Assembly: GCA_977017645.1 (NCBI GenBank) | Contig: OZ360223.1 | Location: 209,374,001-209,438,000 of the forward strand | Source of the DNA: Torpedo marmorata | Lineage: Eukaryota | Direction of reading: 5' to 3' | Length of the DNA stretch: 64,000 nt | Shown here: positions 5,663-61,215 of the stretch, piece after piece | Layout of the letters: the number at the start of each line of letters is the position of its first letter | How positions within the stretch are numbered: position 1 is the stretch's first letter | The notes under the pieces: model-generated | Told to the model about the DNA's origin: nothing | What the model saw: the letters and a program-made list of their open reading frames with translations, nothing else | The model's database searches: none | Made by a program: the position numbers and the translations under genes

Positions 5663-6734
5663 CTGGGTAAAAAGGGAAGGAGAAAAACAGTTCAGAGGTG
5701 AAATATTGGCAACAAGAATGGATTTTGGTGCATCTGTACATTGTACTTACGTATATGACATTAAACTTTCATATCATTTCACATCCCCTCATAACATATC
5801 AACATTTAAGCAAGATCACTGCTGAAACAGTGAGGTGGGTTTTCCATGCAGGCTCTTCATTACTGGTTAGTTACAAATCCAATGTTAATTATATTTCATT
5901 GTTGTAAAGGATGCAGGAAAATCTCCAGGATTGCACATAGCACCGTTTCAGAGAGTCACCGAAAGGTCCATCCTTACCTTTAATTAACCTGCATGGTAAT
6001 TGATTGCATTGACTGGAGCAGGTGGGGCGAAAGCGCGGTAAAATGGATTTGCTGTCAGAGTTTAGATGTGGCACGCCTGCCAGATGGAACAACTGAGTGC
6101 TGTCGACATGACATGACCATTTGGTATGGTCAGTGATGTCCAGATGACCTTCACAATGGGTCATGAGACTGTTAGATGCAGCCTCTGATTGCTTACAACA
6201 GGTGCTGAATGCTAATTAGGCAAAAAAGGTTCAACAGTAATGGAGAAAGCCGGCCAGAGGGCAGAACTGATGAGACAGGATGAGTGCTGACACAGCCTTC
6301 CGAATCCTGTTGAAAGTGCTGGACTCCAGCTGCATTCAGAATTTCTTGGGCCTCTTAATGCACCCTTCACCATCAGCCTCAGCTCTAACTCACTATATCT
6401 GGAGCACGAGAATAATCCGAGTTTATTTTCCCTCAGTGGCTTGATCCCTGGATAGATTTACCAACAAAGGAGGCACAAGAAAGCACAAGTGCCTGACCAC
6501 ATCAGGGTACCACCACATTGGTGTAATGCTGCCACTATTTTCGCAGCTGTTTGGTTTTGAAGTGATGAGGGACTTGGGGGGATTTTTATGTGGGATACAG
6601 AGCCACTCCCTTCTGCAGCGACATTGTGGACAAAGTCAGACTTACTTAAAAATAAATTCCAGCATGTTTAGTAGGAAGGATGATGAATCATGTGCGAATG
6701 GTGCCATTGTTTAATGAGCCACAGATTAACTAAG

Positions 6735-7040
6735 TGAAACACAAAAGTCAGCAGACGCTGTGATTGTAGTAAAATCACACAGAAGTGCTGGAGGAATTCA
6801 GCTGGTCTCACAGCGTCTATAGGAGGTAAAGATACCAACGTTTCGGGCCTGAGCCCTTCTTCAAGGTATAAGTAAAAAGCAGGCAGGCGTCTGAATTAGA
6901 CTAGTGAGAGAAAGGGGGAAGAATGGGAAGGGGAGGACTCCACACCAACAGACAAAAGATGTTAATTGGACATGATAAGAGGAAAGGTGAGAATTGATTT
7001 TGTCTCTGTGAAAGGAGACAGAGGGAAAAGGGAAAAGGGA

Positions 7041-7071
<31 letters not shown>

Positions 7072-7230
7072 CAGAGAACTAGAGGAAAGGAGACAGGGGG
7101 AAGAAGATTGGGGGGGGGGGAGGTGTTTAACGGAAACTGGAGAGGTCGATGTTAATGCTATCTGGTTAATGTTGCCCAGATGGAAGATGAGGTGTTGTTC
7201 CTCCAATTTGTGGATGGTCTCAATCTGGTC
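6735..7230 (-). mobile_element. Penelope-like 3' fragment with hammerhead-like tail and (GA)n tract
   Basis: Minus-strand LEEQHLIFHLG matches the PLE C-terminus (LEEQHLIFRLG); tail resembles 11560-11730. Confidence 0.8.
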
Positions 7231-7349
7231 ACAGATTAACTAATTTCAGAATAGCCACTACAGCAAGGTAAATTGGAATTCCAAAGTGGATTGGTTACCA
7301 AATCAAGTTTATATTCACTCAATTGAAGAACTTTTCTTTCATATTCAGA

Positions 7350-7620
7350 TAATCATGGAATTACAAACATGGAAACAGGTCCTTCAGTGCAACTTGCCCA
7401 TGCCAACCAAGGCACCTCCTTGAGCTAATGCCATTTGCCTGTATTTGGCGCCTATCCCCTACCATCTTTCCTATCTATGTATCTGTCTAAATGTATTGCA
7501 AACATTTTAATTATCCTCTAGCAACTGGCTCCATTTACCCATAATCCTCTGTGTGAAAAACATGCCCCCCAGGTTCCCTTTGAATCTTTCCCCTCTCATC
7601 TTAAACCTATGCCTTAGACT
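7350..7620 (-). mobile_element. Degraded CR1 3' fragment
   Basis: catggaaacaggtccttc...ctctgtgtgaaaaacatgccccccaggttccctttgaatctttcccctctcatcttaaacctatgcc resembles 54730-55000. Confidence 0.65.
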
Positions 7621-7804
7621 CGCCCACCCTCATGATTTTGCATACCTCTATAATGCCACCCCCTCAGACTCCTGCTCTGAGGGAAAACAGACCCAGTTTG
7701 GGAGAAATGTAACAATATGTCTCAGGATTATATCTAAAGGTTTTCTGGAGCAAATTGTCTTTGCTCACTTACATACAGATTCTGATAGCCCGCTCAGTAC
7801 ATAC

Positions 7805-7985: not shown

Positions 7986-8299
7986 CTAGAATAAAGGAGT
8001 AAATAAAGCAGTCAGTGAAACCTGCATGGAACATGATAAACTCGTGTAACAGCACATATGAGCACTAACTAGAGCAAAAGCTCCTGAAATGTTTCTAAAT
8101 TCACACATATTCATCTCCTGCAGAATGTGACATCTTTTAATTCTTATTTCACTCCTGCCTACAGACGTAAGTGATGTGGGAGTGGATTTATTTTATGTTG
8201 TGGTAGAATTTGTATTTGGGGAAAAAGAGTGTGTGAAAGCAGCAGAAACTCTTCCTGATATTTATGCCACTTAGGTTCACTCATACAGATAAGTGTACG

Positions 8300-11200
8300 A
8301 GGGACCTCCCCAACCTTCCCCCTCCCCCCAACACCCTCCACAACACCGATCCCCACTCTAACCCCTGCTTGGTTTTTATTATCCCCTCTGATCTTCCCCT
8401 CTCTGAGACAGAGCGCTCGGTCCTCAGTCGAGGCCTCACCTTCGTCCCCCTCCGCCAACACCTTAATGAGTTCCGCGCACGCTGCGATGCCAAACTCTTC
8501 TTCCGTCGCCTCCGCCTCCGGGCTCACTTCCATGACCGTGACTCTCCACCCCCCCACCCAAGACCCTTTCTCCCGCTTCAAGCCTTCTTCCTCTTCCTGG
8601 ACACCTCGTCCTGGCCAGCTGCCCGCTCTGGACCTTTTTATTTCCAACTGCTGCCGAGACATCAACCGTCTCAACTTTACCACCCCCCCCCCTCTCGTAT
8701 TCCAACCTCATCTCCTCAGAACGCTCTGCCCTCCACTCTCTCCGCAACAATCCAACCTCACCATCAAACCCGCAGACAAGGGCCGTGCAGTTGTGGTCTG
8801 GCGCACTGACCCCTGCCTTGCCGAGGCCAGTCGACAACTCTCAGACACCTCCTCCTACCGACCCCTCCCACGGGACCCCATCACTACACATCAAGCCACT
8901 GTCTCCAACACCATCTCCGACCTCATCACCTGCGGTCACCTCCCCCCCACGGCCACCAACCTCAATCTCTCCCACCCCCGCACTGCCCGTTTCTACCTTC
9001 TACCCAAGATACACAAACCCAACCATCCGGGCAGACCCAGTGTTTCTGCCTGCTCCTGCCCCACCGAACTACCGTAGTTTCATCTTACCTTGACTCCATC
9101 TTTTCTCCCCTGGTCCAATCCCTCCCCACCTAATTCTGCGACACCTCACATGCCCTCCATCTCCTCAATGACTTCAGATTCCCTGAACCGGACCACATCA
9201 TCTTCACAATAGATGTCCAATCCCTTTATACCTCTATCCCCCACACAGAAGGTCTGAAAGCACCTTGCTTCTTCCTGGACCAAAGACCCGACCAGTCACC
9301 ATCTACCACCACCCTCCTCCGCCTGGCAGAACCTGTCCTTACTCTCAATAACTCCTTCAACTCATCCCACTTCCTCCAAATCAAAGGAGTAGCCATGGGT
9401 ACCCGCATGGGTCCCAGCTACGCCTGCCTGTTTGTGGGCTTTGTGGAGCAATCCATGCTGCAAGCCTACACAGGCAAGGCCCCTCATCTCTTCCTCCGTT
9501 ATATCGACGACTACATCGGGGCTGCCTCATGCACCCGCGATGAGCTTGTCAACTTCATCCACTTCGCATCTAACTTCCACCCCGATCTCAAACTCACCTG
9601 GTCCATCTCCGATAACACTCTCCCCTTCCTGGATTTCTCTGTCTCCATCTCGGGAGACAAGCTTTCCACCTACATATACTACAAACCCACCAACTCCCAC
9701 TCCCAAAACTTGACGAAGGGTACCAAAATGGCGGCGCTGCCGGGGCCGCTGTAGCAGCAGTGCTGCCGCTGGTGTGGACCTGCGGGAAGCAAGGGAGCGG
9801 AGATGAGTCCAGCCGCCCAGTCGACTGCCGTCGGCTCCGCACGGGTTTTGAACGGCCCATTGAGGGAGCCGACGGTGGTTTTATTTGAGATCCTGCGGCC
9901 GCAGGGTCTGCGCCCAAGATGGCAGCGCCTATTAATCGGCAGCAGCCACGAGGGGCTGCAGACTCCGGGGAAGAGGAGGACTGGAGCAGGGCACCAGAGG
10001 ACGGAAAGATCACCCCCACCCCCCAAGGTCTGAGAAGGAGAAGCGGAGGAGACGACCCACGGGACGGTGACCACGGCGGCGGACCAGTGAGGGGCTCTGA
10101 GGCTGAAGGACCAGTGCATGCGGCGGGCTGCTGGCGACTCGAGGCGAAGGAACCCGTGGAGGCTGTGGGCTGCTGGAGACTGCTGTCGGGGGACTCACGC
10201 CGGGCTGCGGTCTACTGGAGACTGGCTCGAACTGGCTGGAGGAGTACCAGGTATCGGAACCGGGATGCGAGGGGGTGCCGAGGGCGCCGAAGGGTTCCTG
10301 ACCGTGTCGGAGGTTCGGATCTGGAGCTCGGGTTTCTGATGGTTTGGACTGGACTCTGTGTGGCTGCGGAGGCTGCGGAAGAGCTGGAGGCGAATCAACG
10401 GACACTCGGTGACTCTGGGGGGATTCCATTTTGCTTCTCTTTCTCTGACTATAAGGAATGTTAGAGGCGCTTAGGCAATTTCTGCCGGTGGCGAATCTGT
10501 CTGCCTTGCAGCAGGCAAAAAGAAATGTCATGTAATATGACACTGTTTTATTACTATGACAATAAATTGAATCTTGAATCTTGAACTATATGGACTACAC
10601 TTCCTCACTCCCTGTCCCCTGCAAGGATTCCATCCCCTTCTCTCAATTTCTCCATCTCCACCGCATCTGTTCCCAAGATGAGGTCTTCCAGTCCAGATCT
10701 TCTGAAATGTCTGCCTTCTTCCACAAACGTGGCCCTCACCCGCATCTCCTCCATTTCACGCTCATCTGCCCTGGCCCCCTCTGCCCCCAGACACAACAAA
10801 CATAGAATCCCCCTCATCCTCACCTACCACCCCACCAGTCTCCGCATCCAACACATTATCCTCCGGAATTTCCAGCACTTACTACAGGATCCCACCACCA
10901 GACATATTTTTCCTTCTCCTCCCCTCTCGGCCTTCTGCAGGGACCGCTCCCTCCGCGATTCCCTCGTGCATTCATCCCTCCCCACCCATCGCACCCCCGG
11001 CACCTTCCTCTGTCCCCGCAGGAGGTGCAACACTTGCGCCCACACCTCTTCCCTCACCACGGTCCAGGGTCCCAAACAGACCTTTCAAGTGAAGCAACAG
11101 TTCACTTGTACATCCAGAGAACCTATTTACTGCCTTTGTGGCATTCTCTACATCGGAGAGACCGGTCGTAGATTGGGAGATCGCTTCGCTGAGCACCTCC

Positions 11201-11732
11201 TCTCCGTCCACAACAACAGCGACCTCCCAGTAGCCAACCATTTCAATTCCGAGTCACACTCCCACACTCACATGTCTGTCCATGGCCTTATGTACTATCC
11301 CACCCAGACGACCCACAAATTGGAGGAACAACATCTTATTTTCCGTCTGGGCACTCTCCAGCCAGATGGCATTAACATTGACTTTTCTGCTTTCCACTAA
11401 ACCTGCTTGTCTTTTCCTTCCCCTCCCCCCTCACCTGTCCTTCCTGTTTTTTTCCACCCACCCAGCCATCCCTCCTCCCCCTCTTTGCTGCTGTCCCCTC
11501 CCTCCTTTCTCCACCTATCATCTCCTGCCTTTGCCACTCCCCCTCCCCCCCCTCATTCTTTTGTTCGGACGCCTGCCGGCATTTTCTCATACTTTGATGA
11601 AGGGCTCAAGCCTGAAACGTCGGTTATGTATTTCTACCTTTGCTACATAAAAGGCACTGTTTGACCTGCTGGTTTCTCCAGCATTTGTGTTTTTTACTTC
11701 AACCACGGTGTCTGCAGATTTTCGTGATTTAC
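8300..11732 (+). mobile_element. Penelope-like retroelement (RT + GIY-YIG), disrupted by stops/frameshifts and a nested insertion at about 9701-10584
   Basis: ORF pieces carry PLE motifs: LSRGLTFVP, IKPADKG, ARFYLLPKIHKP, MGTRMGPSYA, FLRYIDD, LPFLD and GIY-YIG-like LYIGETGRRLGDRFAEH. A pyrimidine-rich 3' UTR and hammerhead-like tail follow. 5' boundary approximate. Confidence 0.9.
9724..10584 (+). mobile_element. GC-rich non-autonomous retroelement, about 860 bp, nested in the Penelope element
   Basis: Starts aaaatggcggcg and ends tgacaataaa(ttgaatc)n; near-identical to 28188-29031. Penelope sequence resumes directly after it. Confidence 0.85.
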
Positions 11733-11752
11733 CTTTTAAATTAGAAGCTCAC

Positions 11753-12642: not shown

Positions 12643-13291
12643 CACATGCATAAACTCACACTGGGTAATTTCCTGTGGCATGGCTCAATATGAGCCACAG
12701 GATTGTCCAGTACAGATGCCAGCATGAAAGTGATGGGTAAGATTTAAAAGGACCAAGTGTTACAGCATGTAATTGTGGCACATGCAAGAAGAGACTTTGA
12801 AAACATTATTTATTGACAGATAGACAGGAGCAGGATACTGGTTGCAGTTTGTCTGTTCTTGTGTAATACACAAATTTATTATCAGGGAAATTTAGGGAGA
12901 ACTCCATCCTGTGCCAATCCTGCACTTCACTTATCCCTCTTGACAGCCCCACGCTTGGAGATGCTTGCTGTTGAAATGGCAAAGTCTCATTTTCCAGTCA
13001 TTGACATCCTCCAGTAACAAACAAACAACAAGAGGAATTCAGCTGGTCAGGCAGCATCTGTGGAGCCAGAGGAATGATCATCATTTTGGGTCAACCATCC
13101 CTCTGCCTCCACAGATGTGGCCTGACTCCCTGTTTTTTTCTTTAAGGTCCAGATGAAAGAAACTGCGATCCCTTGTGTCTCCATTGACATCCTTTACCCT
13201 GACATTGCGTGTCTGCGTGGGTTTTCTCCGGGGGCTCTGGTTTCCTCCCACCGTTCAAAACGTACCGGGAGTGTAGGTTAATGGGGTGTAA

Positions 13292-14523
13292 GTAAAACAC
13301 GAAAATGCTGGAGAAACTCAGCAGGTCAAACAGTGACTTTTATGTAGCAAAGGTAGAAATACATAACCAACGTTTCGGGCTTGAGCCCTTCATCAAAGTA
13401 TGAGAAAATGACGGCAGGCGTCCGAACAAAAGAATGAGGGGGGGAAGGGGGAGTGGCAAAGGCAAGAGATGATAGGTGGAGAAAGGAGGGAGGGGACAGC
13501 AGCAAAGAGGGGGAGGAGGGATGGCTGGGTGGGTGGAAAAAAACAGGAAGGACAGGTGAGGGGGGAGGGGAAGGAAAAGACAAGCAGGTTTAGTGGAAAG
13601 CAGAAAAGTCAATGTTAATGCCATCTGGCTGGAGAGTGCCCAGACGGAAAATAAGATGTTGTTCCTCCAATTTGCGGGTAGTCTGGGTGGGATAGTACAT
13701 AAGGCCATGGACAGACATGTGAGTGTGGGAGTGTGACTCGGAATTGAAATGGCTGGCTACTGGGAGGTCGCTGTTGTTGAGGACGGAGAGGAGGTGCTCA
13801 GCAAAGTGATCTCCCAATCTACGACCGGTCTCTCCGATGTAGAGAAAGCCACAAAGGGAGCACCGGATGCAGTAAATAAGTTCTCTGGATGTACAAGTGA
13901 AGTGTAGTTTCACTTGAAAGGCCTGTTTGGGGCCCCAGACCGTGGTGAGGGGGGAGGTGTGGGCGCAGGTGTTGCACCTCCTGCGGGCACAGGGGAAGGT
14001 GCCGGGGGTGCGATGGGTGGGGAGGGATGAGTGCACGAGAGAATCACGGAGGGAGCGGTCCCTGCGGAAGGCCGAGAGGGGAGGAGAAGGAAAAATGTGT
14101 CTGGTGGTGGGATCCTGTAGTAAGTGCCGGAAATTCCGGCGGATAATGTGTTGGATGCGGAGGCTGGTGGGGTGGTAGGTGAGGATGAGGGGGATTCTAT
14201 GTTTCTTGCGTCTGGGGGCAGAGGGGGCCAGGGCAGATGAGCGGGAAATGGAGGAGATGCGGGTGAGGGCTGAGGTGATGGTGGTGGAGGGAAGCCACGT
14301 TTGTGGAAGAAGGCAGACATTTCAGAAGATCTGGACTGGAAGACCTCATCTTGGGAACAGATGTGGCGGAGACGGATAAATTGAGAGAAGTGGATGGAAT
14401 CCTTGCAGGGGACAGGGTGTGAGGAAGTGTAGTCCAGATAGTTGTGGGAGTTGGAGGGTTTGTAGTAAATGTTGGTGGAAAGCTTGTCTCCTGAGATGGA
14501 GACAGAGAGTTCCAGGTAGGGGA
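13292..14523 (-). mobile_element. 5'-truncated Penelope-like element, same family as 8300-11732, inserted in a V-SINE
   Basis: ORFs 13590-14036 and 13340-13708 are near-identical to those of the + copy. Flanked by direct repeat GGTGTAA (13285-13291, 14524-14530). Confidence 0.92.
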
Positions 14524-17500
14524 GGTGTAAATTGGGCGGCACTGCCTGTTACCGTGCTGTATGTCTAAAAAAAAAATTTCAATTGCAAAAGGATGATTTA
14601 AGGAAAGCTTTTCTGAATAAGTCAGTTGTTGCCACCATTTAGTGGGTTTGAAAGAAAACCATTTCAAAGCAGTAATTTAACATCACTGAAAAAAAAAACA
14701 CAATTAAGGTCTGGGAATGCATGGAGTGTATTAAAGGGCACAGATTGCAAGATTATTTTTTTATTTTTAGAATGTTGAAGGATACCCTGTGTGGTCTAAC
14801 AGAAAAGGATACACTATTTTTCAAAAAGCACCAGTCTGTTCAATCTGCTATGGCTATGACAAAGGCATTTTTTTAAACCAGTAAACTCCATCTGGCAAAC
14901 CCTTTGAACATTCAAGCATTTTATTTCACTTTTATTTTGCTTCTGGGTGTTTGTTTCTTCATGCTAGTTCTATCAATTTGTGCCTCTGATGCTCTTCAAG
15001 TGATACAATTATCATACGTGCCAATGACTTCAGAGTTTGCTGAGTTCATGATCTCAGGCAAGCAAAATTATTTCCTCAAAAACAGTAAAATTAAAAGGTG
15101 CCATCAGAGGTCCATTTTGATGCTAATAGCAATGGAAATATCCATGTTACACCCAAGTGATAATGTTGCTCGCACTGGACTTGTTGAGTGTTAAAGATTA
15201 ATAAAAATGAAGTATTATCTGTAGTTACATCATGAATTTATTATATGGTAAGTTCTCCCAAGATATGGCTTTAATTCTGCTTGTAAATAAAACTATCTGA
15301 TATTTGTAATCACTACTATCATAATATGAAAGGAAACGGATAGGTTCTTTTTTTTAATCCCTTAAGAAGAAGGTGGCCTAACGGCCAAACAGATTTGTCT
15401 ATTGAGGTTAATTTACTTGATATTTTACTTGAAATAATTGAGAAAGGGATGGGATGGTCCCCGAGACCCTCAAAGACATCCTCTTTTAATGCAAAGCTAC
15501 ACGGATTCACTTCTGAAACCCTGTCCATTATCTGTCAACAACATAGGTTCAAAAAAATAGTTTAAGCCTCTTGGGAGACTTGGGTCAAGAGTTTCAAAGA
15601 TTGAGCATTTCTAGCTAGCAGAAGCTTCAGAGGATACTAACCACACTCATTAACTGTATGAGCTCAGAGAAGCTGTGTAGAATGAGCATATCGTCCTAAT
15701 GTCAAACCAGAGTGCATAAAGCTAGCCAGCTGTCAGGTGCATTTGCCATGTTGTTAACAAACCTGTGTATAATTGGTCGACAGCTTTAAGGACAATCTTG
15801 CATACTTTTTAAAATCAAGCAACATGTTTGCATCATACACTTTTACAGTTTACTTTGTTTCCCTGATAACACTGAATGTACATACGATTATGATTCAGGA
15901 CATGGATACAAAAGGTAATAGGAGTTTGACTGAAGGGGAAAGGTTATGAAGCTAAACACAATATGCTGGAGGAACTCAGCAGGTCGAGCAGCATCAGTGG
16001 GAGAATAAGGATTGGTCAATGTTTCGAGCTGAAACCCATCATGACTTCATCCATTCTTTTTCTCTCATTGATCCTGCTCCACCATTGAATTCCTCTAGCA
16101 CATTGTGTTTAGCCTCAGATTCTGGCAATTGCTGTCTCATGTGTGTCTAGAGCAAGATTATGGTAGTTGGTTGGAGGAAGAGGTTCCCACTGTCAGTTTA
16201 GGCATTCCAGATGTTGTCACTGTATTTGCCTCATCTGGACACCAACCAAACAAAGCCAAGTTTGATCTGCTAGCAAGTATAATGCAGTGAAGAGAAGAGG
16301 ATACATGTACTTACATTTGGAGGGGGTTGGGGGGGGGGGGAAGAGAGAGAGAGAGAGAGAATGATAAAAAATTAATGGTATATTTTGGAAGAAAACATAA
16401 AAATACAGATTCATTTTAGCAAAGGTATAATAAAAGAATCCTAATCTTCAACATTGTAAAGAGATTCCAGTGAGTGTCTTCAATTACAGGGCTACGGTAG
16501 GATAATGATCCAACCTCATGTATGTTCTTGGTAAAGTGTTGGGTGTTTGGCAGTGTGATTCTGCGGAAATGTAAACACACCTTGTCATTCAATCTCACAA
16601 ATGCAATCAACCCAAACCCTGGAGGCATGAGGATGTAATGTGAGTAGGTTTATTCGGGAAAGAAAAAAGCATTGTTGTATTTCCTGCTCTCCCTTCCCCT
16701 TTCCTTCTCCCTCCCCCTCCCACACTCCCTCTAATTCAGCCCTGAAGGCAATTCAACTCTTCAGAGAAAATTTCTGTCTTCCATACTCAAGAGAGTTGGA
16801 TGGCAACTGTGTTTTCACTGGTGAATGTCTCAATACAATGCTGTTCACTGGTACAAGAGGGCACCGCCAAGCCCATATAGGGAAGGTCTCAGACAAAGGA
16901 GGAACTGACACATTTTCAGCAGTCGGCCACATGGAAAAAAATACTAAGAACACTTTGAAGAAGATTGAACGTGTTGACAAGGATATGTACTTGATATGTA
17001 ACACTCAAATCTCTCAACAATTATCAGCAAACATATCGTAGAGCTGTCAGTTGCAAGGGATTAGTTCATTCTCCTTTGAAGCTGATTTAAAATTGAAATG
17101 CAGGCCTTTAAATTCAGATCTATGTCAGCAAGATGTCACGAATCATACATCTGATCTGTGAACAAATGGATCCTTGAAAGAAGCAGAGCAAATTTTTATG
17201 CCTCCAAGAAGATGAAAAGGGTTTCCAAACCATACAAGGGTTTACAAGCCTTTAGCAGGCGCAATTTTTCTGTGATGGCTGCATTTGAAAATTAAGGCAT
17301 CTATACCAATCATCAGATCAAGGAAAACATAAACACATCTGAGTGCAACTCTGCAGAAATAAAGATTTTTTAAAAAGAAGGCAAAATGCCTTTTGATTTG
17401 TAAACTCTCTGAACAGTCTGTGTTGTGACCCTGTTTTTGTTTTCCTTTGCAGCAGACGTTTGGTCATCAGCAGGTTAAAGAACATTCATTTCCTTTCTTG

Positions 17501-25704: not shown

Positions 25705-25789
25705 CTTTTGCCTCGTCCCTCTTGGCCAGTAAGTCCTGATTCGAACTAGTGGGGTCTATTCCCCGGGAGCCAATGTGCTCTACTGGAGG
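25705..25789 (-). repeat. Intronic 85-bp diverged copy of part of PTCH2 exon 14
   Basis: Ungapped match to 24886-24970, 10 mismatches by manual count. Confidence 0.9.
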
Positions 25790-25849: not shown

Positions 25850-26500
25850 GCTCTTCCCCCTGCCCCTTCTTTCCTCCTCTCCTTCACCCCTCCCCCCCCC
25901 ACCACACCCCCCCCAACCCCTGCTCACCTTTTGATTTAGGCACCTGCCTGCTTTTTGCTCATTTCTTTTTTCTTTTTTTTGAAAATTGTAGAAAACTTTA
26001 TTTCGTAGAAAATGGCAATGAAACATTTGCTTTAAAATAGGACTGTTTGTAACTGTTTCTCTAACTTATCCCACAGATAAATCTATGGAAAAGACAAGCT
26101 TATGCATATCAAAGTCATTAAAAAAAAACACTCAGAAGAACAATTAAAGACCAGAAATTTACTGGTCTCATCAAGTTATTTTAATATTAGCTTGTTAAAG
26201 TTTACTGTAATCTTGTTTTTGCATTAAATGTCTGCTCACTTTCCTCCCAAAGTTATTTGATGCTAGAAATTTGTAATAATTTTTATCCCCAAGCAGAAAT
26301 CCAAAGTTTCACGTTTTATGCAGAAAGATAAATTATTCCTTTTCAAAGGAGTAATCTTTCTTCTTGTAAATGTTTGTATCTGTTGGGTTTTTGCTCATTT
26401 CTTGACGAAGGACTTAGGCCCGAAACGTTGGTTACCCTTTATTTCCTATATATGCTGCATGACCTGCTGAGACTCTCCAGCACTTTTGTGTATTGCTATA
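25850..26500 (+). mobile_element. Penelope-like 3' tail split by a retro-insertion
   Basis: Pyrimidine tract plus cacctgcctgcttttt (25850-25967) resumes at 26388 with cttgacgaagg..ggcccgaaacgttgg..gacctgctgagactctccagcac. Confidence 0.75.
25968..26387 (-). pseudogene. Retrocopied polyadenylated RNA 3' fragment, source unknown
   Basis: 16-bp TSD TTTTTGCTCATTTCTT (25952-25967, 26388-26403); minus-strand A-tail (25968-25980) and AATAAA (25997-26002). Confidence 0.75.
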
Positions 26501-27526: not shown

Positions 27527-28187
27527 GTAAGCTCAGGCAGATCACATTGCTGGAGCTGACATGTAGATGATATATCCCATCATTTATGCCAACGACATTG
27601 GCTGTGCAAATTGAAGGCCTGCTTGCAGGCTGGTCTAGTGTTCATCCCTGTCAGGTTCATGCTGCTTAAAGCTCTTTGTACTGTTTTCAGCGACTCCAGG
27701 CTTTGCCAAGTACAGTAGGCCGAAGGGAGTTTTCAGCAGATCACCATTTAGCATGAGAATAAAGAGAGCACAGGACAGGAAAACAATCACTGTTCAGTGG
27801 AAATAATGAACACATGATATCTTCCTTAGCCCTTACTCTCTGGACTGGGTTGCAGTTTTCATGTACTGGACCCTCCTACTTTATGCCTGATATCCCACTC
27901 CCTGTGCAGCCCCTCAACATGTCCACAAAGAAAAATAAATGAATAGTAATTAAATTCTAGTAAAAATTCCAGAAAGGTGTGTTTGGGTATGGAACAATTT
28001 ATTTGGAGAATGATAGACAGCAAAGGGAATGATTTTCCAACTCTCTAAAAATACATTTAGACTGAACTTAAAATGCATACTAGAAATGTTTTGTATCCCT
28101 CCAATATGTAGTTATCCTGACAACAAAGCCCACCCCCCCCCCACCCACAAATAAAATTCAACTTTTTGTAAACATGCATTGTGGCAT

Positions 28188-29031
28188 AATGGCGGCGCTG
28201 CCGGAGCCGCTGTAGCGGCAGCGCTTCCGCTGGTGCAGACCCGCGGGGAGCGAGGGAGCGGAGATACAGCGCTCCCGCGGGGTCCAGCCGCCCAGTCGAC
28301 TGCTGTCGGTTCCGCACGGGCTTTGAACGGCCCGTTAAAGGAGGCGATGGTGGTTTTATTTAAGATCCCGCGACCACGGGGTCTGCGCACAAGATGGCAG
28401 CGCCTTTTAACCGGCAGCAGCCACGAGGGGCTGCAGATTCCGGGGAAGCGGAGGACTGGAGCAGGGCACCAGAGGATGGGAAGATCACCCCCCGTCTGAG
28501 AAGGAGAAGCAGAGGAGACGACCCACGGGATGGTGACCATGGCGGCGGACCGGTGAGGGGCTCTGAGGCTGAAGGACCAGTGCACGCGGCGGGCTGCTGG
28601 CGACTCGAGGCGAGGAACCCGCGGAGGCTGTGGGCTGCTGGAGACTGCTGTCGGGGTACTCACACCGGGCTGCGGACTGCTGGAGGCTGGCTCTAACTGG
28701 CTGGAGGAGTACCAGGTATCGGAACCGGGATGCAAGGGGATGCCGAGGGCGACCTGACCGTGTCGGAGGTTCGGATCTGGAGCTCGGGTTGCCGATCGTT
28801 TGGACTGGACTCTGTGTGGCTGCGGAAGCGCTGGAGGCGAATCTATGGACACTCGATGACTCTGGGGGGATTCTCTTTTGCTTCTCTTTCTCTGACTGTA
28901 AGGAATGTAAGAAGCGCTTAGGCAATTTCTGCCGGTGGCGAATCTGTCTGCCTTGCAGCAGGCAAAAAGAAATTTCATGGAATATGACACTGTCTTATTA
29001 CTATGACAATAAATTGAATCTTGAATCTTGA
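28188..29031 (+). mobile_element. Second full copy of the GC-rich non-autonomous retroelement
   Basis: Colinear with 9724-10584, with the same 5' aatggcggcg and the same 3' tail. Confidence 0.85.
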
Positions 29032-38957: not shown

Positions 38958-39210
38958 TTGGATCTGGAGCTTGGGTTGCCGATGGTTTGGACTGGACTCT
39001 GTGTGGCTGCGGAGGCTGCGGGAGCGCTGGAGGCGAATCCACAGACACTCGGTAACTCTGGGGGGAACTCTCTTTTGCTTCTCTTTCTCTGATGTAAGAG
39101 GCGCTTCAGGCAATTTCTGCCAATGCGAATCTGTCTGCCTCAGAGCAGACAAAAGCAATTCAATGTAATATGACACTGTTTTTATTACATGACAATAAAT
39201 TGAATCTTGA
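38958..39210 (+). mobile_element. 5'-truncated copy of the GC-rich non-autonomous element
   Basis: ggatctggagcttgggttgccgatgg...tgacaataaattgaatcttga matches the 3' third of the family. Confidence 0.8.
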
Positions 39211-41460
39211 AATCAAGGATTTAGCAGTAGAAAGAGTGTGCATTTTTCCTATATTAATAAAGTTGCTTTTATTTCAAAACCAGAAAATCCTGAAAAGCAG
39301 AGAACTTCAATCCATTTGGTAAGAACTGATCAGTAACATGATGGCACCGTGTAGTGTATCTTCAGCATGTGATGATAATTCCACTCTCTGAACTCCGTGA
39401 CATCCTGAGCTGGCCTCAGTGTGGCCACCGGAGGAGGGGTGGATTGGGCTCAACTCTAAATAAACTCATGCTGGACATCTGAAATATAAGCAGAGCATGC
39501 TGGAAATACAGCAGGCCAGGCAGCAGCCACACAAAACACATCATAGAGCCAACGTGCCAGATAAAAGATCCATCATTGTGAGTGACTCCGGCACTTTCTG
39601 CTTTCTTTTTCGGGCTCAGCTGCAATACCTGTCACCATCCAACTACTCATCAACATGCATACATTTTGCTGCTTGGCCCTTAGCGTCGATGCCTATAGTT
39701 TGGATGGTTGTGTAGAAGCACACATCAAAGTCAATGAGCTCAAGAAAGGGAAAGGTAAAGCACATTTTCAATTAATTTGGAAATAAATGGTGTTGATGGC
39801 TGCATACAAAAGACTGCAAATGGCCTAACGACTTGATGCAAATAATAAAAGAGTGGCAGGCATAGTTATTTCTCTAAAGTCTACAACCACGCTCATCATT
39901 TATGACATTTACACAGCCGCTGCATAACGGGAAAATCTCGGAAATTTCCCGTTATGCTGGCTGTGTAAAAATGTCGTGACGGAAATTAAGAACTAATTTC
40001 CGTCCCAACATTTTTCCTGCAGCAGCTCTCGACATTTTTACGGACTGCCTGCTATCTAAACTGAACTGCAGGCGGTCTGCAAAAATGGGTTAATGAATAC
40101 GACGTACCTGTGTACGTCCGAATCGACGTGGACCCACGTCTACCCTCCGGAATCACCGCAACGCAGGAAGTTAGTGTAAACGTCCATCCTGTGTGAACGG
40201 CCACTCCGGAGGGTAAGTATGCATATTGATGACGGGAAAATCTCGGTACTTCTGTCTAAAAAACATAATTGATGTGGTGAGAAGGATGGATATTGTTGGG
40301 AGCGTAAACACTGCCAGTTCCCAACTGCTGTACTAACTCCTCAGTTGACGAGGTGACTGGTGCTAGTCATTTTCAGGGCCAATATGAAAGAGCTAATGAA
40401 CTAAAAAGAGCACCTGTTTCCCTAGCTATGCTCCAGCAAAGATAGAATAGGCATGAAAGGAAAAAGAAATGAAAGAAAAGAGATGAGTATAGACTCTGAT
40501 TGGTGTGCGAGTAGAAAAATATTTAAGGTAACTTGCAGTGTCTGCTCTAGAAAGAGTTAAAGAGCACTTTCTTCGGAAGAAGAGGCTTTTCTGTTTTCCA
40601 CCAGTGTCTGTTCTCACTTGTCCACATGTCATTCAGTCAGGATCTTGTGCTCTCAGCCTGAAACTTTAGATCTGAGTCAGGTGACCTATCATTGCCTTCG
40701 GCATGATGTTTTTCAGGCCGGTTAAGACCCCTCCCAACACCTTAACCACACCACAATTTTATGGCACTTTATCACGGAGATCTTACAAGAGTGGAGCCAC
40801 AGGTGCAAATTCAGGCTGTGCTTTCAGCTACTGGGCAGCCTCTTGGTTGGCACCCTGACAATCAGAGCTCAAAGAGCAAAACTAGGATATCATAAATCAT
40901 ATCACAAAGTAATGTTTCCGAGTCTTTCATGGTCTGTTTAAAGGGATTGCACCACATCCATGGAGATTTCCCAGGTCATGTTCTGGGCAACGCACCAACT
41001 CTGTTGTAATCCCACTCATTTTACGTTGATTTTAAATAGAAAAAAAAAAGCACAAAAATTCTGGGATTGTATAACATTCCACTCATTTTTACATGATTTA
41101 AACTATTTCCTTTTTATAATTTGAAATGATCTGTGTTATTTTCTCCTGTCTTTAGGTTTCTCTCTTTCCAGCGCCACACGCAGCTCCCTAGGCATAACAT
41201 GAAGACACTCAGGGAGATCAGCAGCCAACTTTCATCACTGCTTTTGCTGGAAGGTGTAAAAGAGTAACACTGAAAAGGACTTTATTAGTTCGGGGAAAGA
41301 AGAAACTCTCATATTTGTAACAGCAGCTGCAAGTTGGGTAACGACCACCACTGACGTATTGTTTTATGAAACTCACATTCTATGTCACCACAACAACTAA
41401 AGCCACCTGTTCCTTTCCCTCTGCTCTATTAAAAAAACACACACTTCCATTAATCAACAT

Positions 41461-43894: not shown

Positions 43895-44787
43895 CTGCAA
43901 CAACGTAAAATATGTTTAGTTATTTATATTTAGTAGCATCACTGTGACCTTTTAATTCATCCAAATTTAGCTTTTACTCTCCAGAGCAGTTCCCTGAGAA
44001 CAGGAACATCAGTGGTTCTCTGAAAAACAGTGAACAGGTTACTGGAGCCTTTACTATCAAGTTACTTTGTCTTGGTTTGAGTGCCTCCAGTCTCTGGATA
44101 GTCACCACCAGCTTGTGTCTAAAAATCATTTCACGCATTGATTGAACCAGCCAGAAGTGACAGCTTTATCTAGAAGAGTCAACACTTGGGTAGGTTTGTT
44201 TCAGGGAACCATATAAACTGGGTTTATCATTGTAAAAGGTAGATTTCATTCTGTCAGTCAAGCGATTATTCAAAAACAAAATCAGAAAGTAATGTTGGAA
44301 TAAAAGTGCACCTGGTCTCATAATTGAGCTCCCCAAATGAATAAGGAAGCTACTGATGAGTACTGGTGTGCTCCAGAATGAAATGGTACACCAGCAGTAA
44401 TAGCCAAAAACGACATGGTACATTTAAATATTTTACATTTAAATTTTTTTTAATATCTTTTACATTTAAATATTTGTGTGCTGAGGCTCTCATGAAAAAT
44501 TAACATATCTCTCCCAGCATGTGAAGCCCTGTGTTGGCATTGCTGACATCCAAAATTTATCCAAAGGTCAGAAGTGCAGAAATAAATTGCCAATGAATAA
44601 AAAACTGGCAGGTGCTAGAACTCTGAAATCAAAACAGAAAATGGGGAAGATACTCAGCAGGTCAGACAGCATCTGTGAAGAGAGAAACAACATTCAGATG
44701 AAGGGTCTCAATTCCTCTTTCCACAGATGCCATCTGACCAGCTGAGTGTTTCCAGCATTGAATGAAATAAAATGCCAAATGGCTTAC

Positions 44788-54714: not shown

Positions 54715-55708
54715 ATCATAGAACATAGAACAATACAGCACAGTACAGGCCCTTCGGCCCTCGATGTTTTTCCGACCCATATATCCTTCCTTTAAAAAAG
54801 TACTAAACCCTCCCTACCCCGTAACCCTCTATTTTTCTTTCATCCATGTGTCTGTCTAAGAGTCTCTTAAATGCCCCCAATGTTTCAGCCTCCACCACCA
54901 TCACCGGCAAGGCATTCCAGGCACCCACAACTCTCTGTGTAAAAAGCTTACCCCTGATGTCTCCCCTAAACTTCCCTCCCTTAACTTTGTACATATGTCC
55001 TCTGGTGTTTGCTGATCCTGCCCTGGGAAACAGGCGCTGGATGTCCACCCTATCTATGCCTCTCATAATCTTGTAGACCTTTATCAAGTCTCCTCTCATC
55101 CTTCTAAGCTCCAAAGAGAAAAGTCCCAGCTCTGCTAACCTTGACTCATAAGACTGGTTTTCCAGTCCAGGCAACATCCTGGTAAATCTCCTCTGCACCC
55201 TCTCCAGAGCTTCCACATCCTTCCTGTGATGAGGTGACCAGAACTGAACACAATACTCTAAGTGTGGTCTTACCAGAGATTTGTAGAGTTGTAACATTAC
55301 CTCTCTACCCCTGAACTCAATCCCCCTATTAATGAAGCCCAGCATCCCATAGGCCTTCTTAACTATCCTATCAACCTGTGCGGCGACTTTGAAGGATGTA
55401 TGGATTTGAACCCCAAGGTCCCTCTGTTCATCCACACTCTTAAGTAACTGACCATTAACCCTGTACTCAGCCTTCTGGTTTGTCCTTCCAAAATGCATCA
55501 CCTCACAATTATCCGGATTGAAATCCATCTGCCACTTTTCTGCCCAACTCTGCATCCTGTCTATATCCTCTTGTAACCTTCGACAACCTTCAGCTCTATC
55601 CACAACTCCTCCAACCTTCGTGTCGTCCGCAAACTTACTGACCCATCCTTCCGCCTCTTCATCCAGGACATTTACAAATATCACAAAGAGCAGGGGTCCC
55701 AGAACAGA
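54715..55708 (-). mobile_element. CR1-clade LINE (HER1-like), 5'-truncated
   Basis: Open 293-aa RT C-terminus (SKFADDTK, WAEKWQM, LVRPHLEYCVQFWSP, RGDLI); 3' tail of ttctatg repeats. Confidence 0.92.
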
Positions 55709-56669: not shown

Positions 56670-57236
56670 TCAGAATCAGAATTAGAATTTATTGTCATGA
56701 ACAAGTCATGAAATTTGGTGTTTTGCAGCAGCATCATAGTGCAAACATTCATATTATAACCATCTTACATTAAAAAATAAAAATAATAGTGCACGAAAAG
56801 TTTGGTTCATTGATTATTCAGGAATCTGATGGCAGCGGGGAAGAAGCTGTCCCTGTGCCGTTTAGTGCTCGTCTTTAGGCTCCTGTACCTTTTTTCCGAT
56901 GGTAGCAGAGTGAAGAGGGCATGGCCTGGGTGGTGGGGGTCTTTGAGGATAGAGGCTGCTTTTTTAAGACACCGCCTCATGTAAATGACCTCGATGGAGT
57001 GAAGTCTGGTGCCTGTGATGTCGCAGGCCGAGTTAACAACCCTCTGGAGTTTATTCTTGTCCTGAGAGTTGGCGCCTCCATACCAGGCAGTGATGTAACC
57101 AGCCAGAATGCTCTCCACGGTACACCTGTAGATGTTCATGAGAGTCTTCGGTGACATATCGAATCTCTTCAGACACCTCACAAAGTGTAGCCGCTGGCGA
57201 GCCTTCTTTGTGATTGCATCAACATGGATGCTCCAG
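56670..57236 (-). mobile_element. Rex1/Babar-like LINE 3' part, interrupted by the L1
   Basis: ORF 56807-57181 (YRCTVESIL..AWYG..LQRVV..KDPHHPGHALFTLLPS..DSFFPAAIR) is the typical Rex1-type RT C-terminus; tail tgacaataaa with ttctga-type repeats. Confidence 0.82.
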
Positions 57237-60200
57237 AGTTGAATGTGGATATAGCTTTTTTACAGGAGACACATTTAATAGATTCTGAACATCAAAAGTT
57301 AAAAAGAGAATGGGTTGGTCAAGTGGTGGCTTCTTCATTTAATTCTAAAGCAAGAGGAGTAGCTATATTAATTAATAAAAAGTTACCTTTTAAGATACAA
57401 TCAGTAGTTATAGATGTGGTAGGTAGATATGTCTTGATTCATTGCCAGATTTATTCAGAATTTTGGACACTTATGAATTTGTATGTGTCAAATCCAGATG
57501 ATGAACAATTTATTCAAGATTCTTTTTTACACTTGTCAGAAGCTAATGAGAATATTTTAATTGGGGGAGACTTTAATTGTTGTCTAGATCCAATAATGGA
57601 TAAAACTTCAAGATCACTTGCTAAAACTAAAATTGCTAAAAGAGTTCTTTCTTTGATGAAAGATTTAAATTTGGTAGATATTTGGAGGAAATTGAACCCT
57701 AGAGAAAAAGATTATTCTTTTTATTCTTTTAGGCATGATTCATATTCAAGGATAGATTTATTTTTATTGTCTTCACAGGTTCAAGATAGAATAACGCAAG
57801 CATCGTATAAAGCGAGAATTATTTCTGATCATTCACCTTTATTAATATCTTGTATAATTCCGGAAAAAGAAAATACTGTATATAGCTGGAGATTTAACTC
57901 TTCTTTATTAAAAAGAAAAGATTTCTGTGACTATATGAGAAGGGAAATTCAGGAATTTTTACAAATAAATTCTAATTCCACTGATAATAAATTTATTATT
58001 TGGGAAGCGTTAAAAGCTTATTTAAGAGGTCAAATAATAAGCTATTCAGCAAAAATTAAGAAAGATTATCTTAGGGAAGTAGAAAAATTAGAGAAGGAGA
58101 TTGAATGTTTGGAAAAAGATTTACAAAAAAATAGATCAATTCAAAAAGGAATCGTTTAATTGGGAAGAAATTACATTATAATTTATTACAAACATATAGA
58201 ATGGAAAAACTAATTGAAAGAACTAAACAAAGATATTATGAATTAGGGGAAAGAGCTCATAAAGTTTTGGCATGGCAATTAAAAAAAGAACAAACTTCTA
58301 GAACTATAAATGCTATAAGGAAAAAGAATTCTAGAGAAATAACCTATAAACCTCGAGAAATAAATGATTCTTTTAAAGATTATTATTTGAATCTATATAA
58401 ATCTCAGTTTTATCAAGATGATTTTAAAATTACTACATTCTTATCTAAAATTACACTACCTAAATTGAATACTCAAAGTAGAGAATCTTTAGATTTACCT
58501 TTTTCAATGAGGGAAGTTAATGAAGTTCTTACTTCGCTTAAAAGTGGTAAATCTCCCGGTGATGATGGATTTCCATCAGAATTTTATAAAGAATTTAAAG
58601 ACTTGTTAATACCTCCATATATGGACATATTGAATCAAATTACGGAAACTCATTCTTTACCAGATACTTTTTAAAATGCAATAATTACAGTTATACCAAA
58701 GAAAGATAGAGATGTATTGAAAACTGAATCTTACAGACCTATTTCATTATTAAATGTAGATTATAAGATAATGGCAAAGATTTTAGCAAATAGAATGGCT
58801 AATTATTTACCAGACTCAATTCATGTAGATCAAGCTGGTTTTATTAAAAATAGATATTCAAAAGATAATATAGCCAGATTGATTAGTTTAATTAATTTAC
58901 ATAAAAAGAAGGAAGACTTACCATTAGTTTTAACTTTAGATGCTGAAAAGGCTTTTGATAGATTAGAGTGGAACTTTTTATTTAAGGTATTGGAGAAATT
59001 TGGTTTTGGAAATACATTTATTAATTGGATTAAAACTATATATAAAGAACCATCAGCTAAAGTAGTTACAAATGGACAAACTTCTTCAAAATTTCCTTTG
59101 ACTCGATCTACTAGACAAGGATGTCCTTTGTCACCAGCATTATTTATTTTGGCGATAGAACCCTTGGCAGAATTAGTTAGAAAAGATCCTAAAATAGTTG
59201 GTATTAAGGTTGGAATGGAAGAACATAAAATTAGCTTGTTTGCAGATGATGTATTGATATATATGACAAAATCTACTACATCCTTAGTACAATTGTCTGT
59301 GTTATTGAGAGAATATGGATAAATATCTGGATATAAGATTAATTCTGATAAAAGTGAAATTATGGCATTATCACAAGGGGATTATAGTAGATGTAAGGAA
59401 ATTACACAATTTAAATGGGCTAAGGAAGGAATTAAATATTTGGGAGTAAAGGTCGATACAAAATTGACTAATTTATATAAATTAAATTATTTACCATTAT
59501 TTGTGAAAATAAAGAAAGATTTAGAAAATTGTAAAGATTTACCTATAACTTTAATGGGAAGAGTAAACTGTATTAAAATGAATGTTTTTCCAAGAATTCA
59601 ATATCTTTTTCAATCAATTCCTTATGGAATTCCTCAAAATTCTTTTAAAGATTTAAATTCAATTATTAGAAAATTTTTATGGAAAGGAAAGTTAGCAAGA
59701 GTAGGTATGGAAAAATTAACTTGGAATTATGAAATGGGTGGTTTACAACTTCCTAATTTCCAAAATTATTATAAAGCAGCTCAATTAAAATTTGTTAATG
59801 AATTTTTTGATTTAATAAATCTTCTGCTTGGATTAAAATAGAATTAAATAATATAGGAGAAGATTCCAAAGAAGAAATTATTTATAAATGGGATTCTAAA
59901 TTAATATCAACAAAAAAGAAAAATTCGTCTATTTTTAAACATTTGTTAGAAATATGGAATAAGACGGATAAGGAAATAGGAGCAAAAGGATTGATTTCTT
60001 CAAGGATGCCTTTATATCAAAATGGACTTATTCCATTTACTATTAATAATCAATTATTTAAAATTTGGTTTCAAAAAGGAATTAAGAAGATTAATGATTG
60101 TTTTGAAGCTGGGAAATTTATTACCTTTCAAAGAATGAAAGATAAATTTAATATATTAGATAATACACTTTTTGCTGATTATCAAATTAGAGCTTTTTTG

Positions 60201-61215
60201 ATTGAGAAATTAGGTTATGCTTTGATTTTGCCAAGACAAAATGAATTAGAATTATTAGTTACTAAAGGAGATGTTAATAAATTTATTTCTCAAATGTATA
60301 AATTGTTTCAGAGGAAAATGCCTAAAGTAGGAATGCATAAATCAAGATTAAAATGGGAATTAGATTTGAATGTAAGAATAGATGAAAATCATTGGAAAGA
60401 ATTATGTAAATTAAGTATGACGAAGATTATTAATGTTAGATATAGATTAGTTCAATACAATTTTTTTCATCAATTATATTTAACACCTAAAAAATTAAAG
60501 AAATTTAATCCGACATTATCAGGTTTATGTTTCAGATGTAATAAAGAAGAAGGATCTTTTGTACATTCTACATGGTTTTGTCCAAAAGTTTATGATTTTT
60601 GGTTGAAAGTTAAAAGTTTTTTAGATAAAGTATTTAAAATTACGTTTCCAATGGATCCTACGATATTTTTGTTTGGAGATATTAGAAAATTTAGTATTAA
60701 GATGAAATTAAATATGTATCAAATAGAATTTTTGCGAATTGCTTTAGCTGTTTCAAAGAAATGCATTGCTATTACTTGGAAATCTGATTTAGATTTAGGA
60801 TTAGAAAGATGGCATGCAGAACTTTGTTCATGTATACCACTTGAAAAAATTACTTATAATTTACGTAATAAATATAATTTTTTCTTAAAAATTTGGAGCC
60901 CATATATGAGAGCTGTTGGCTTAAGAATTTGAGGATCTCTGGGTATTGGGTCTACTGGCATACTTGACCTCCATAATAGAAGTAGTTTATAGATTGGCAT
61001 TCCCCTAACTCTATTTTTCTCTTTCTTTCTCTTTCTTCTTTTTCTATTTTTATTTTATATTTTTATTTTTATTAGATTAGTGGGGTTGGGAGGGTTTGGG
61101 AGGTGAGGGAGGGAGGGGGGGTGAAAATGTATCACAAATAATTTCATAACTGTATATTTTATGTATTTTGTGATTTAAAAATTTTAAATAAAATATTTTA
61201 AAAAAACAACAAAAA
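57237..61215 (+). mobile_element. L1-clade LINE, 5'-truncated within the endonuclease; ORF2 broken by stops/frameshifts
   Basis: APE motifs (IAFLQETH, GGDFN, SRIDLF, SDHSP), RT motifs (YRPISLLNVD, LDAEKAFD, RQGCPLSP, LFADD) and C-terminal CFRC..H..WFC. G-rich 3' UTR, AATAAA and A-tail; 16-bp TSD AACATGGATGCTCCAG (57221-57236, 61216-61231). Confidence 0.93.

Follow-up and report, generated by a model that had tools for sequence, protein, structure and literature searches.

Does a hammerhead-like sequence in an intron of a Patched gene represent a real ribozyme motif, and would it cut the transcript in which it lies? The question is raised by 38 nt on the minus strand (6832–6869) of the window, the whole 64,000-nt stretch of Torpedo marmorata DNA analyzed here, in which a sequence-only reading had recognized a minimal hammerhead and suggested self-cleavage. 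The letters of this motif are as that reading gave them, and the sequence, its fold and a covariance model agree on a minimal type I hammerhead. Stem I is formed by 5 bp between 6869–6865 and 6836–6832, and the core runs from U3 at 6864 to A9 at 6858, with G8 at 6859. An extra A (6857), stem II (6856–6845), the GAAA box (6844–6841), a palindromic ACGU (6841–6838) and U17 (6837) follow on the same strand, and the predicted cut falls between 6837 and 6836. By the standard numbering the order is U3 U4 G5 A6 A7 G8 A9, the extra A, G10.1 to C11.1, and then G12 A13 A14 A15.1, C-G, U16.1 and U17. Folded alone, the motif forms the perfect 5-bp stem I that had been proposed; stem II is also present, as 4 bp with a 4-nt loop rather than the 5 bp with a 2-nt loop first read, and both 8-nt core strands are left unpaired. 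The energy of this isolated fold (−12.3 kcal/mol, z −2.28) was equalled by 3 of 200 shuffles. Reading C6865 as C3 followed by an inserted U was rejected, since it breaks stem I and the copies at 11589 and 13364 have no C there.

The hammerhead core pattern matched five times in the window against 0.13 expected, and none of 100 shuffles reached five. Four of the matches belong to one family, all with U3 and G8; the fifth (61445) was discarded as a family copy, as it has no stems by eye and is absent from the 18 hits of the covariance model. This model was trained on 84 C3 motifs from outside the window, with seven U3 motifs and one viral C3 motif left out. A search with hammerhead models had been proposed together with the sequence-only reading, and in it the covariance model ranked the four family copies first (41.3, 32.3, 28.5 and 24.2 bits; next best 11.6), the highest score, with an E of about 3e-10 under this C3-only model and its rough E-values, going to 6832–6869 and upholding its assignment to the minimal type I hammerheads. 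Among the 84 training motifs, 80.7% of stem cells are paired versus 53.4% after shuffling, a count of the kind that kinship inflates, and both-sided changes occur at seven of nine pairs, the remaining two being fixed by the pattern. Among the four window copies, a sample of only four, no compensatory stem change was seen. The Rfam scan returned no hammerhead family among its 8 matches at E up to 10.

The motif therefore falls outside the canonical (Rfam) definition, with no model match and no helix III. It has the core of the minimal hammerheads (min-HHRs) of Penelope-like elements (PLEs), U4 G5 A6 N7 G8 A9 / G12 A13 A14 / A15.1-U16.1 / H17, and their architecture, with stems I and II, an extra base before G10.1-C11.1 and a palindrome replacing helix III. 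It also has their location, a terminal repeat downstream of a PLE endonuclease frame, as in two longer copies. Published min-HHRs of PLE terminal repeats are alike in the short stem I, the extra base between 9 and 10.1, G10.1-C11.1, the lack of helix III, the palindromic 15.2-16.2, the U-rich 5' flank and the solo copies at the 3' ends of truncated PLEs, but have C3-G8 where 6832–6869 has U3 with G8 (PMC4209133). A Watson-Crick 3-8 pair (C3-G8 or U3-A8) is absent from all four intact copies, each with U3 and G8, and the earlier remark that they share U3 thus holds. Among the 56 representatives in Fig. S3 of PMC4209133, none of them from a cartilaginous fish, U3 with G8 and U17 appears in one, the PLE-associated Saccoglossus (1), and U3-A8 in two, the named variant being the compensated U3-A8. 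Since one published family representative also lacks the pair, its absence bears on activity more than on membership. On sequence grounds, 6832–6869 is a real hammerhead-ribozyme-shaped motif of a known class, and neither the motif nor its U3/G8 variant is new in kind. The available parts of the literature yielded no high-copy vertebrate or cartilaginous-fish lineage with uncompensated U3.G8, though the supplements of a 2026 retrozyme preprint that includes one chondrichthyan genome may list such motifs (bioRxiv 10.64898/2026.07.22.740005).

The carrier is a 5'-truncated Penelope-like insertion of 496 nt (6734–7229, minus strand), delimited by a flanking duplication and by the 3' end of the family. 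Exact 14-bp target-site duplications lie at its 3' end (6720–6733) and 5' end (7230–7243), and this word occurs in the window only at 6720 and 7230. The insertion keeps the last ~30 endonuclease codons (7125–7220, minus strand), recognized by translation and by 78% identity over 97 nt to the longer copies at 11306–11402 and 13684–13588. The duplication and this remnant bear out the proposed Penelope tail, and, as far as letters and flanks tell, the motif is the hammerhead-shaped part of the 3' terminal repeat of a truncated PLE in a Patched intron. When contigs of four sequencing runs were aligned to 6560–7030 at 80% likeness, 45,561, 20,854, 33,265 and 3,589 fitted. Contig depth was about 3–14 on the flank in the three runs covering it and 10^5 to >10^6 on the motif, which shows that the motif family is a very abundant repeat, contig depth not being a copy number. 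The family 3' end at 6733/6734, where more than 1000 contigs stop fitting in each of three runs, lies about 103 nt past the predicted cut, and further loose contig ends occur at 6774. The segment 6734–6772 (minus strand) is likely an optional PLE tail of about 35–40 nt, which the alignment places in the 6832 and 11589 copies and not in the 13364 copy; this assignment is made because an optional tail of 30–40 nt, as described for PLEs (PMC11167929; tail concept also PMC8557442), would account for the contig ends at 6774 and for the shorter copy at 13364.

The longest PLE of the window (about 8240–11735, plus strand) is decayed and interrupted by another repeat. A DKG motif, a reverse transcriptase (RT), a CX4CXXC linker and a CCHH-type endonuclease can be read from its translation. 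On the neighboring long copies, Pfam RVT_1 matched with an E of 5.8e-6, below the curated cut-off, and atlas look-alikes were found at 0.96–0.97, with GIY-YIG on 13–27% of members; direct Pfam and NCBIfam scans gave no match for the endonuclease frame. In its translated form, the CX4CXXC linker points to a Neptune or Nematis type PLE, and the neighboring long copies show the Neptune-type layout of RT, CX2-5CXXC linker and C-terminal GIY-YIG with CCHH. Compared with the Neptune clade, these copies are alike in the RT with DKG, the cysteine linker and the C-terminal GIY-YIG-like CCHH domain, a likeness drawn from motifs, while the 6734–7229 copy keeps just its last ~30 codons (PMC8557442). The Anolis Poseidon element PAc likewise has a hammerhead about 100 nt upstream of a 30–40-nt optional tail, a tail marking the insertion end and an AT-rich target, but differs in C3-G8 and in an ORF starting from stem II, and the long window element has the Neptune/Nematis-type linker (PMC11167929). 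Target duplications of the two long copies were sought within the window and not found. A retrozyme identity was rejected, as there are no tandem units and a single copy with a coding remnant stands between target duplications. Animal non-LTR retrozymes do share the type I hammerhead and the relation to PLEs, but they are non-coding tandem repeats, in contrast to the single 6832–6869 copy with its endonuclease remnant (PMC7229834; bioRxiv 10.64898/2026.07.22.740005). A second repeat family, with copies 85–95% alike, occupies 9700–10584, 28185–29031, 1–199 and 38960–39211, and one of its copies interrupts the long PLE between RT and thumb.

The host gene is a patched gene on the minus strand, of which 16 exons were mapped by tblastn at 84–100% identity to a Hemitrygon protein, a likeness that points to a ray or a near relation of rays. 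The host intron (5663–7804, minus strand, splice sites read) lies between the exons 7985–7805 and 5662–5382, and the motif stands 935 nt from the donor of this intron, sense to the pre-mRNA. By the exon numbering of human PTCH1, we take the intron to be intron 17 (exons 17/18), exons 1–2 being unmapped. Among the best 120 rows of the Hemitrygon-protein search, 21 of 26 named tetrapod rows are called patched 2, and the fish rows are mostly named patched 1, presumably the older zebrafish name of the patched 2 gene. These best-hit names make PTCH2 the likely host gene, and with the mapped exons they agree with the earlier claim that the motif is sense to a PTCH2 pre-mRNA. The intron upstream of exon 3 holds a near-complete LINE-type element interrupted by a few stops or frameshifts (57191–60932, plus strand) and another RT fragment (54803–55708, minus strand).

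The other three intact copies all carry U3 and G8. A second sense copy (13364–13401, minus strand) ends a truncated element (14528–13290) in intron 15 and has a 3-pair stem I. The two antisense copies lie at 11589–11626 (plus strand), at the end of the long decayed PLE in intron 16, and at 26397–26434 (plus strand), a tail-only copy with one stem II mismatch in intron 13. Relative to the Patched gene, two copies are thus sense and two antisense; the sense orientation of the 13364 copy, the target-site duplication and the published U3/G8 PLE hammerhead had gone unmentioned in the sequence-only reading. The three other copies retain 3 stem I pairs each, and the perfect stem I occurs only in 6832–6869. 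At 6834, hundreds of contigs per DNA run depart from this sequence and carry additional T/A letters. Judging from these letters, many family copies probably lack the fully paired stem I, which is probably a peculiarity of 6832–6869.

Several further arrangements were observed around these copies. In all four runs, a small number of contigs change strand between the stem I arms, at 6834 and 6867–6868, which suggests that the hammerhead site is inverted in rare copies. The PLE copies at 10584–11699 (plus strand) and 13290–14443 (minus strand) stand tail to tail as an inverted repeat of 1154 columns, 92.6% identical, and bracket the 143-nt exon 16 (11895–11753), with one tail ending about 20 nt from the exon 16 donor site. 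Such a pair could form a pre-mRNA duplex looping out the frame-shifting exon 16, with exon skipping, a circular RNA or A-to-I editing as candidate outcomes. At 15945–16045 (minus strand) there is a decayed tail that belongs to another subfamily, has a damaged core and was missed by the covariance model. Two older tails back to back form a short inverted repeat (44627–44760) just inside the intron after exon 6. Within intron 13, an 85-nt duplicate of part of exon 14 (25705–25789, 88% identity) adjoins a PLE tail fragment (25934–25967) that ends just before the hammerhead.

Conservation was followed in two ways. Single contigs bridge the 3' junction of the insertion in two other organisms, B (6576–6780) and C (6560–6884), and the insertion therefore predates their split. 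The organism C contig has 36 letter differences and 19 gap letters over 325 positions, and at least 11 of the 36 differing letters lie in the 160-nt flank. Among three divergent window lineages, 24 of 28 positions of the core and stem II are invariant versus 42 of 82 in the flanks (Fisher p 0.0015), in a comparison of copies partly found by their core. The invariance suggests selection in the source elements. Position 17 varies among contigs, with C in 42% of the depth in run X1 and in 8–20% in the other runs.

Cleavage within the Patched transcript is predicted to be unlikely, because helix III is absent, the 3-8 pair is not Watson-Crick, a competing hairpin is favored and the 13364 copy would be sequestered by its antisense partner. 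The hairpin arises from an upstream segment (6869–6888, minus strand) predicted to pair with the core and the 5' strand of stem II, and in a 100-nt context its advantage over the hammerhead fold is 2.2 kcal/mol. Stem I reaches a probability of 0.65–0.8 with 10 nt of flank; with 25–400 nt of flank, equilibrium folding gives stems I and II a probability of 0.05 or less, since the 6888–6869 segment then pairs with the core. Two 6832 motifs are predicted to form an inactive duplex (−29.3 kcal/mol) in preference to a double-hammerhead (−22.5 kcal/mol, 6.8 worse), and the same holds for the 6832 motif with the 13364 copy (−26.2 versus −15.7 kcal/mol, 10.5 worse). This second sense copy would be tied up by the antisense copy, which lies in intron 16 of the same pre-mRNA and is 92.6% identical over 1154 columns; the predicted duplex reaches −278.7 kcal/mol over 160 nt. 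The sequencing-run search listed no RNA run with this stretch; the four runs used consist of contigs, from which RNA ends, strand and level do not show, and no position at which many molecules start or stop was listed for them.

Published experiments bear on the same point. A single min-HHR motif is reported not to cleave and dimers to cleave little (PMC4209133), and eight of nine Xenopus retrozyme dimers were uncleaved (bioRxiv 10.64898/2026.07.22.740005). The anole PLE hammerhead is described as cleaving only with the element's protein, and C3G and G8C abolish its cleavage; insertion in vitro does not suffer from core mutations, and RNA-seq shows no reads terminating at the hammerhead site (PMC11167929). 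In the active core C3 is paired with G8, natural change of this pair is usually compensated to U3-A8, and natural core variants can keep low activity (PMC3088659). A pairwise scan gave low activity for individual substitutions within the CUGA/G8 region and, at the 3-8 pair, for every change except the G-C swap, with no figure stated for C3U (PMC9901934). A cleavage rate for U3.G8 or C3U was not found in the accessible parts of the literature, and the supplement of PMC9901934 holds no C20U entry. The self-cleavage suggested for the Patched intron is left unsupported by these predictions and reports: in context the fold is disfavored, none of the other three copies has the perfect stem I, compensatory changes are lacking among the window copies, and lone minimal PLE hammerheads are reported not to cleave (PMC4209133; PMC11167929).

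The best explanation, to which we give a probability of roughly 0.8, is a real feature of a known class that is a passenger in PTCH2. Reverse transcription of the element RNA would have begun from its tail at an AT-rich nick and stopped after 496 nt, leaving the target duplication, with U3 already in the source elements before the insertion. The motif presumably stayed conserved because it was selected in these source elements and not in the PTCH2 intron. Its likely fate is to be transcribed as part of the intron without being cut. Lacking helix III and having a U3.G8 wobble and a competing hairpin, the lone copy is predicted to cleave rarely or never, so that PTCH2 splicing would be unaffected. 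Against this, 6832–6869 has the best fold of the four copies, equilibrium folding ignores co-transcriptional folding and proteins, and an insertion common to organisms B and C must have been tolerated or kept.

An unlikely competitor, agreeing with the passenger explanation on origin, is a slow, protein-gated ribozyme whose U3.G8 core cleaves weakly with a PLE protein as chaperone or with helix III supplied by a tandem partner. Its activity would serve the retroelement, and the Patched intron would be cut occasionally without consequence. The better conservation of core and stem II than of flanks among U3 lineages would fit such a ribozyme, as would the protein dependence of anole PLE hammerhead cleavage (PMC11167929) and the U3/G8 family representative in Saccoglossus (PMC4209133). 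However, no compensating A8 occurs in the four copies, unlike in the Schistosoma U3-A8 families (PMC4209133), stem I is weak in three of the four, and the window holds no intact PLE frame. It is improbable that an abundant ray Penelope lineage has multiplied with a selected U3.G8 core, a slow ribozyme switched on by its protein, and that its sense intronic copies, including two in PTCH2, are cut; if true, retroelement activity would be linked to host pre-mRNA breakage.

Very improbable is a domesticated intronic ribozyme that would have gained its perfect stem I and, either by itself or together with the intron 15 sense copy, would cut the PTCH2 pre-mRNA often enough to tune splicing or output in the manner of the conserved amniote intronic hammerheads. 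Besides the sense orientation, the perfect stem I and the junction common to two other organisms, it could call on the precedent in RECK and other introns (PMC6155905). The hammerheads in RECK, CTCL and DTNB are likewise type I, sense in an intron and of retroelement origin, but they are described as strongly conserved and close to the canonical hammerheads of retroelements (PMC6155905), whereas 6832–6869 belongs to a repeat with very many copies, has no helix III and gives no sign of added conservation among the variants listed for one orthologous contig, that of organism C. Moreover, with tens of thousands of fitting contigs and four intact copies per 64 kb, a sense intronic copy is expected, and the U3.G8 core and the competing hairpin argue against such a role.

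As a passenger, the single locus matters little, since a great many copies of this known transposon motif exist. The function of PLE hammerheads has been called unclear (PMC8557442), and cleavage is reported as dispensable in vitro (PMC11167929). The abundant U3 lineage is a modest lead: it was amplified with a likely impaired U3.G8, a label resting on general mutagenesis text, and yet kept stem II and the GAAAC-GU box. Such a lineage could show, as a natural experiment, whether it is catalysis or the fold itself that preserves the motif.

Outside the window, the frequency of U3 was surveyed with a pattern whose position 3 could be C or U, and which matched 123 metagenome loci in 10 of 64 parts, 2 loci in a viral and 52 in a prokaryote genome collection. 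Among the 103 distinct motifs of the metagenome and the two viral loci, 96 have C3 and 7 have U3; stricter de-duplication leaves 85 and 7, and two of the seven U3 motifs keep the three proximal stem I pairs. In the genome collection, a simple stem test was failed by 15 of 19 U3 matches, which are therefore mostly chance, versus 14 of 34 C3 matches. All three scans found the same layout in other organisms and nothing recognized as the window family; judging from their flanks, the metagenome motifs are likely animal host DNA. Among the contigs fitting the window family, U3 is probably the majority letter, with a bias towards the reference. That U3 arose by independent decay in each copy of a C3 family is very improbable: sporadic U3 copies elsewhere (one, L028, with an adjoining C3 twin), a possible C3 minority among the contigs, for which 40 of 134 variant rows are listed, and a truncated hammerhead start, apparently C3, in the older tail near 44696 would agree with it, but position 3 is a non-CpG site, U3 is common to three divergent window lineages, and 6864 is not among the 40 rows, of which the nine repeat rows computed have best-run shares of at least 33%.

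Some of the outside loci are arranged in pairs. L028, L031, L032, L106 and L137 each hold two minimal hammerheads on opposite strands, 40–210 nt apart, an inverted arrangement noted for PLEs, and in the L028 pair one twin has C3 and the other U3. Repeated well-formed minimal hammerheads also occur in several bacterial MAG records (L129, L131, L134, L136 and L143, and further L147, L149, L152, L156, L160, L169, L172, L174, L175 and L177), which probably represent animal host DNA binned into the MAGs.
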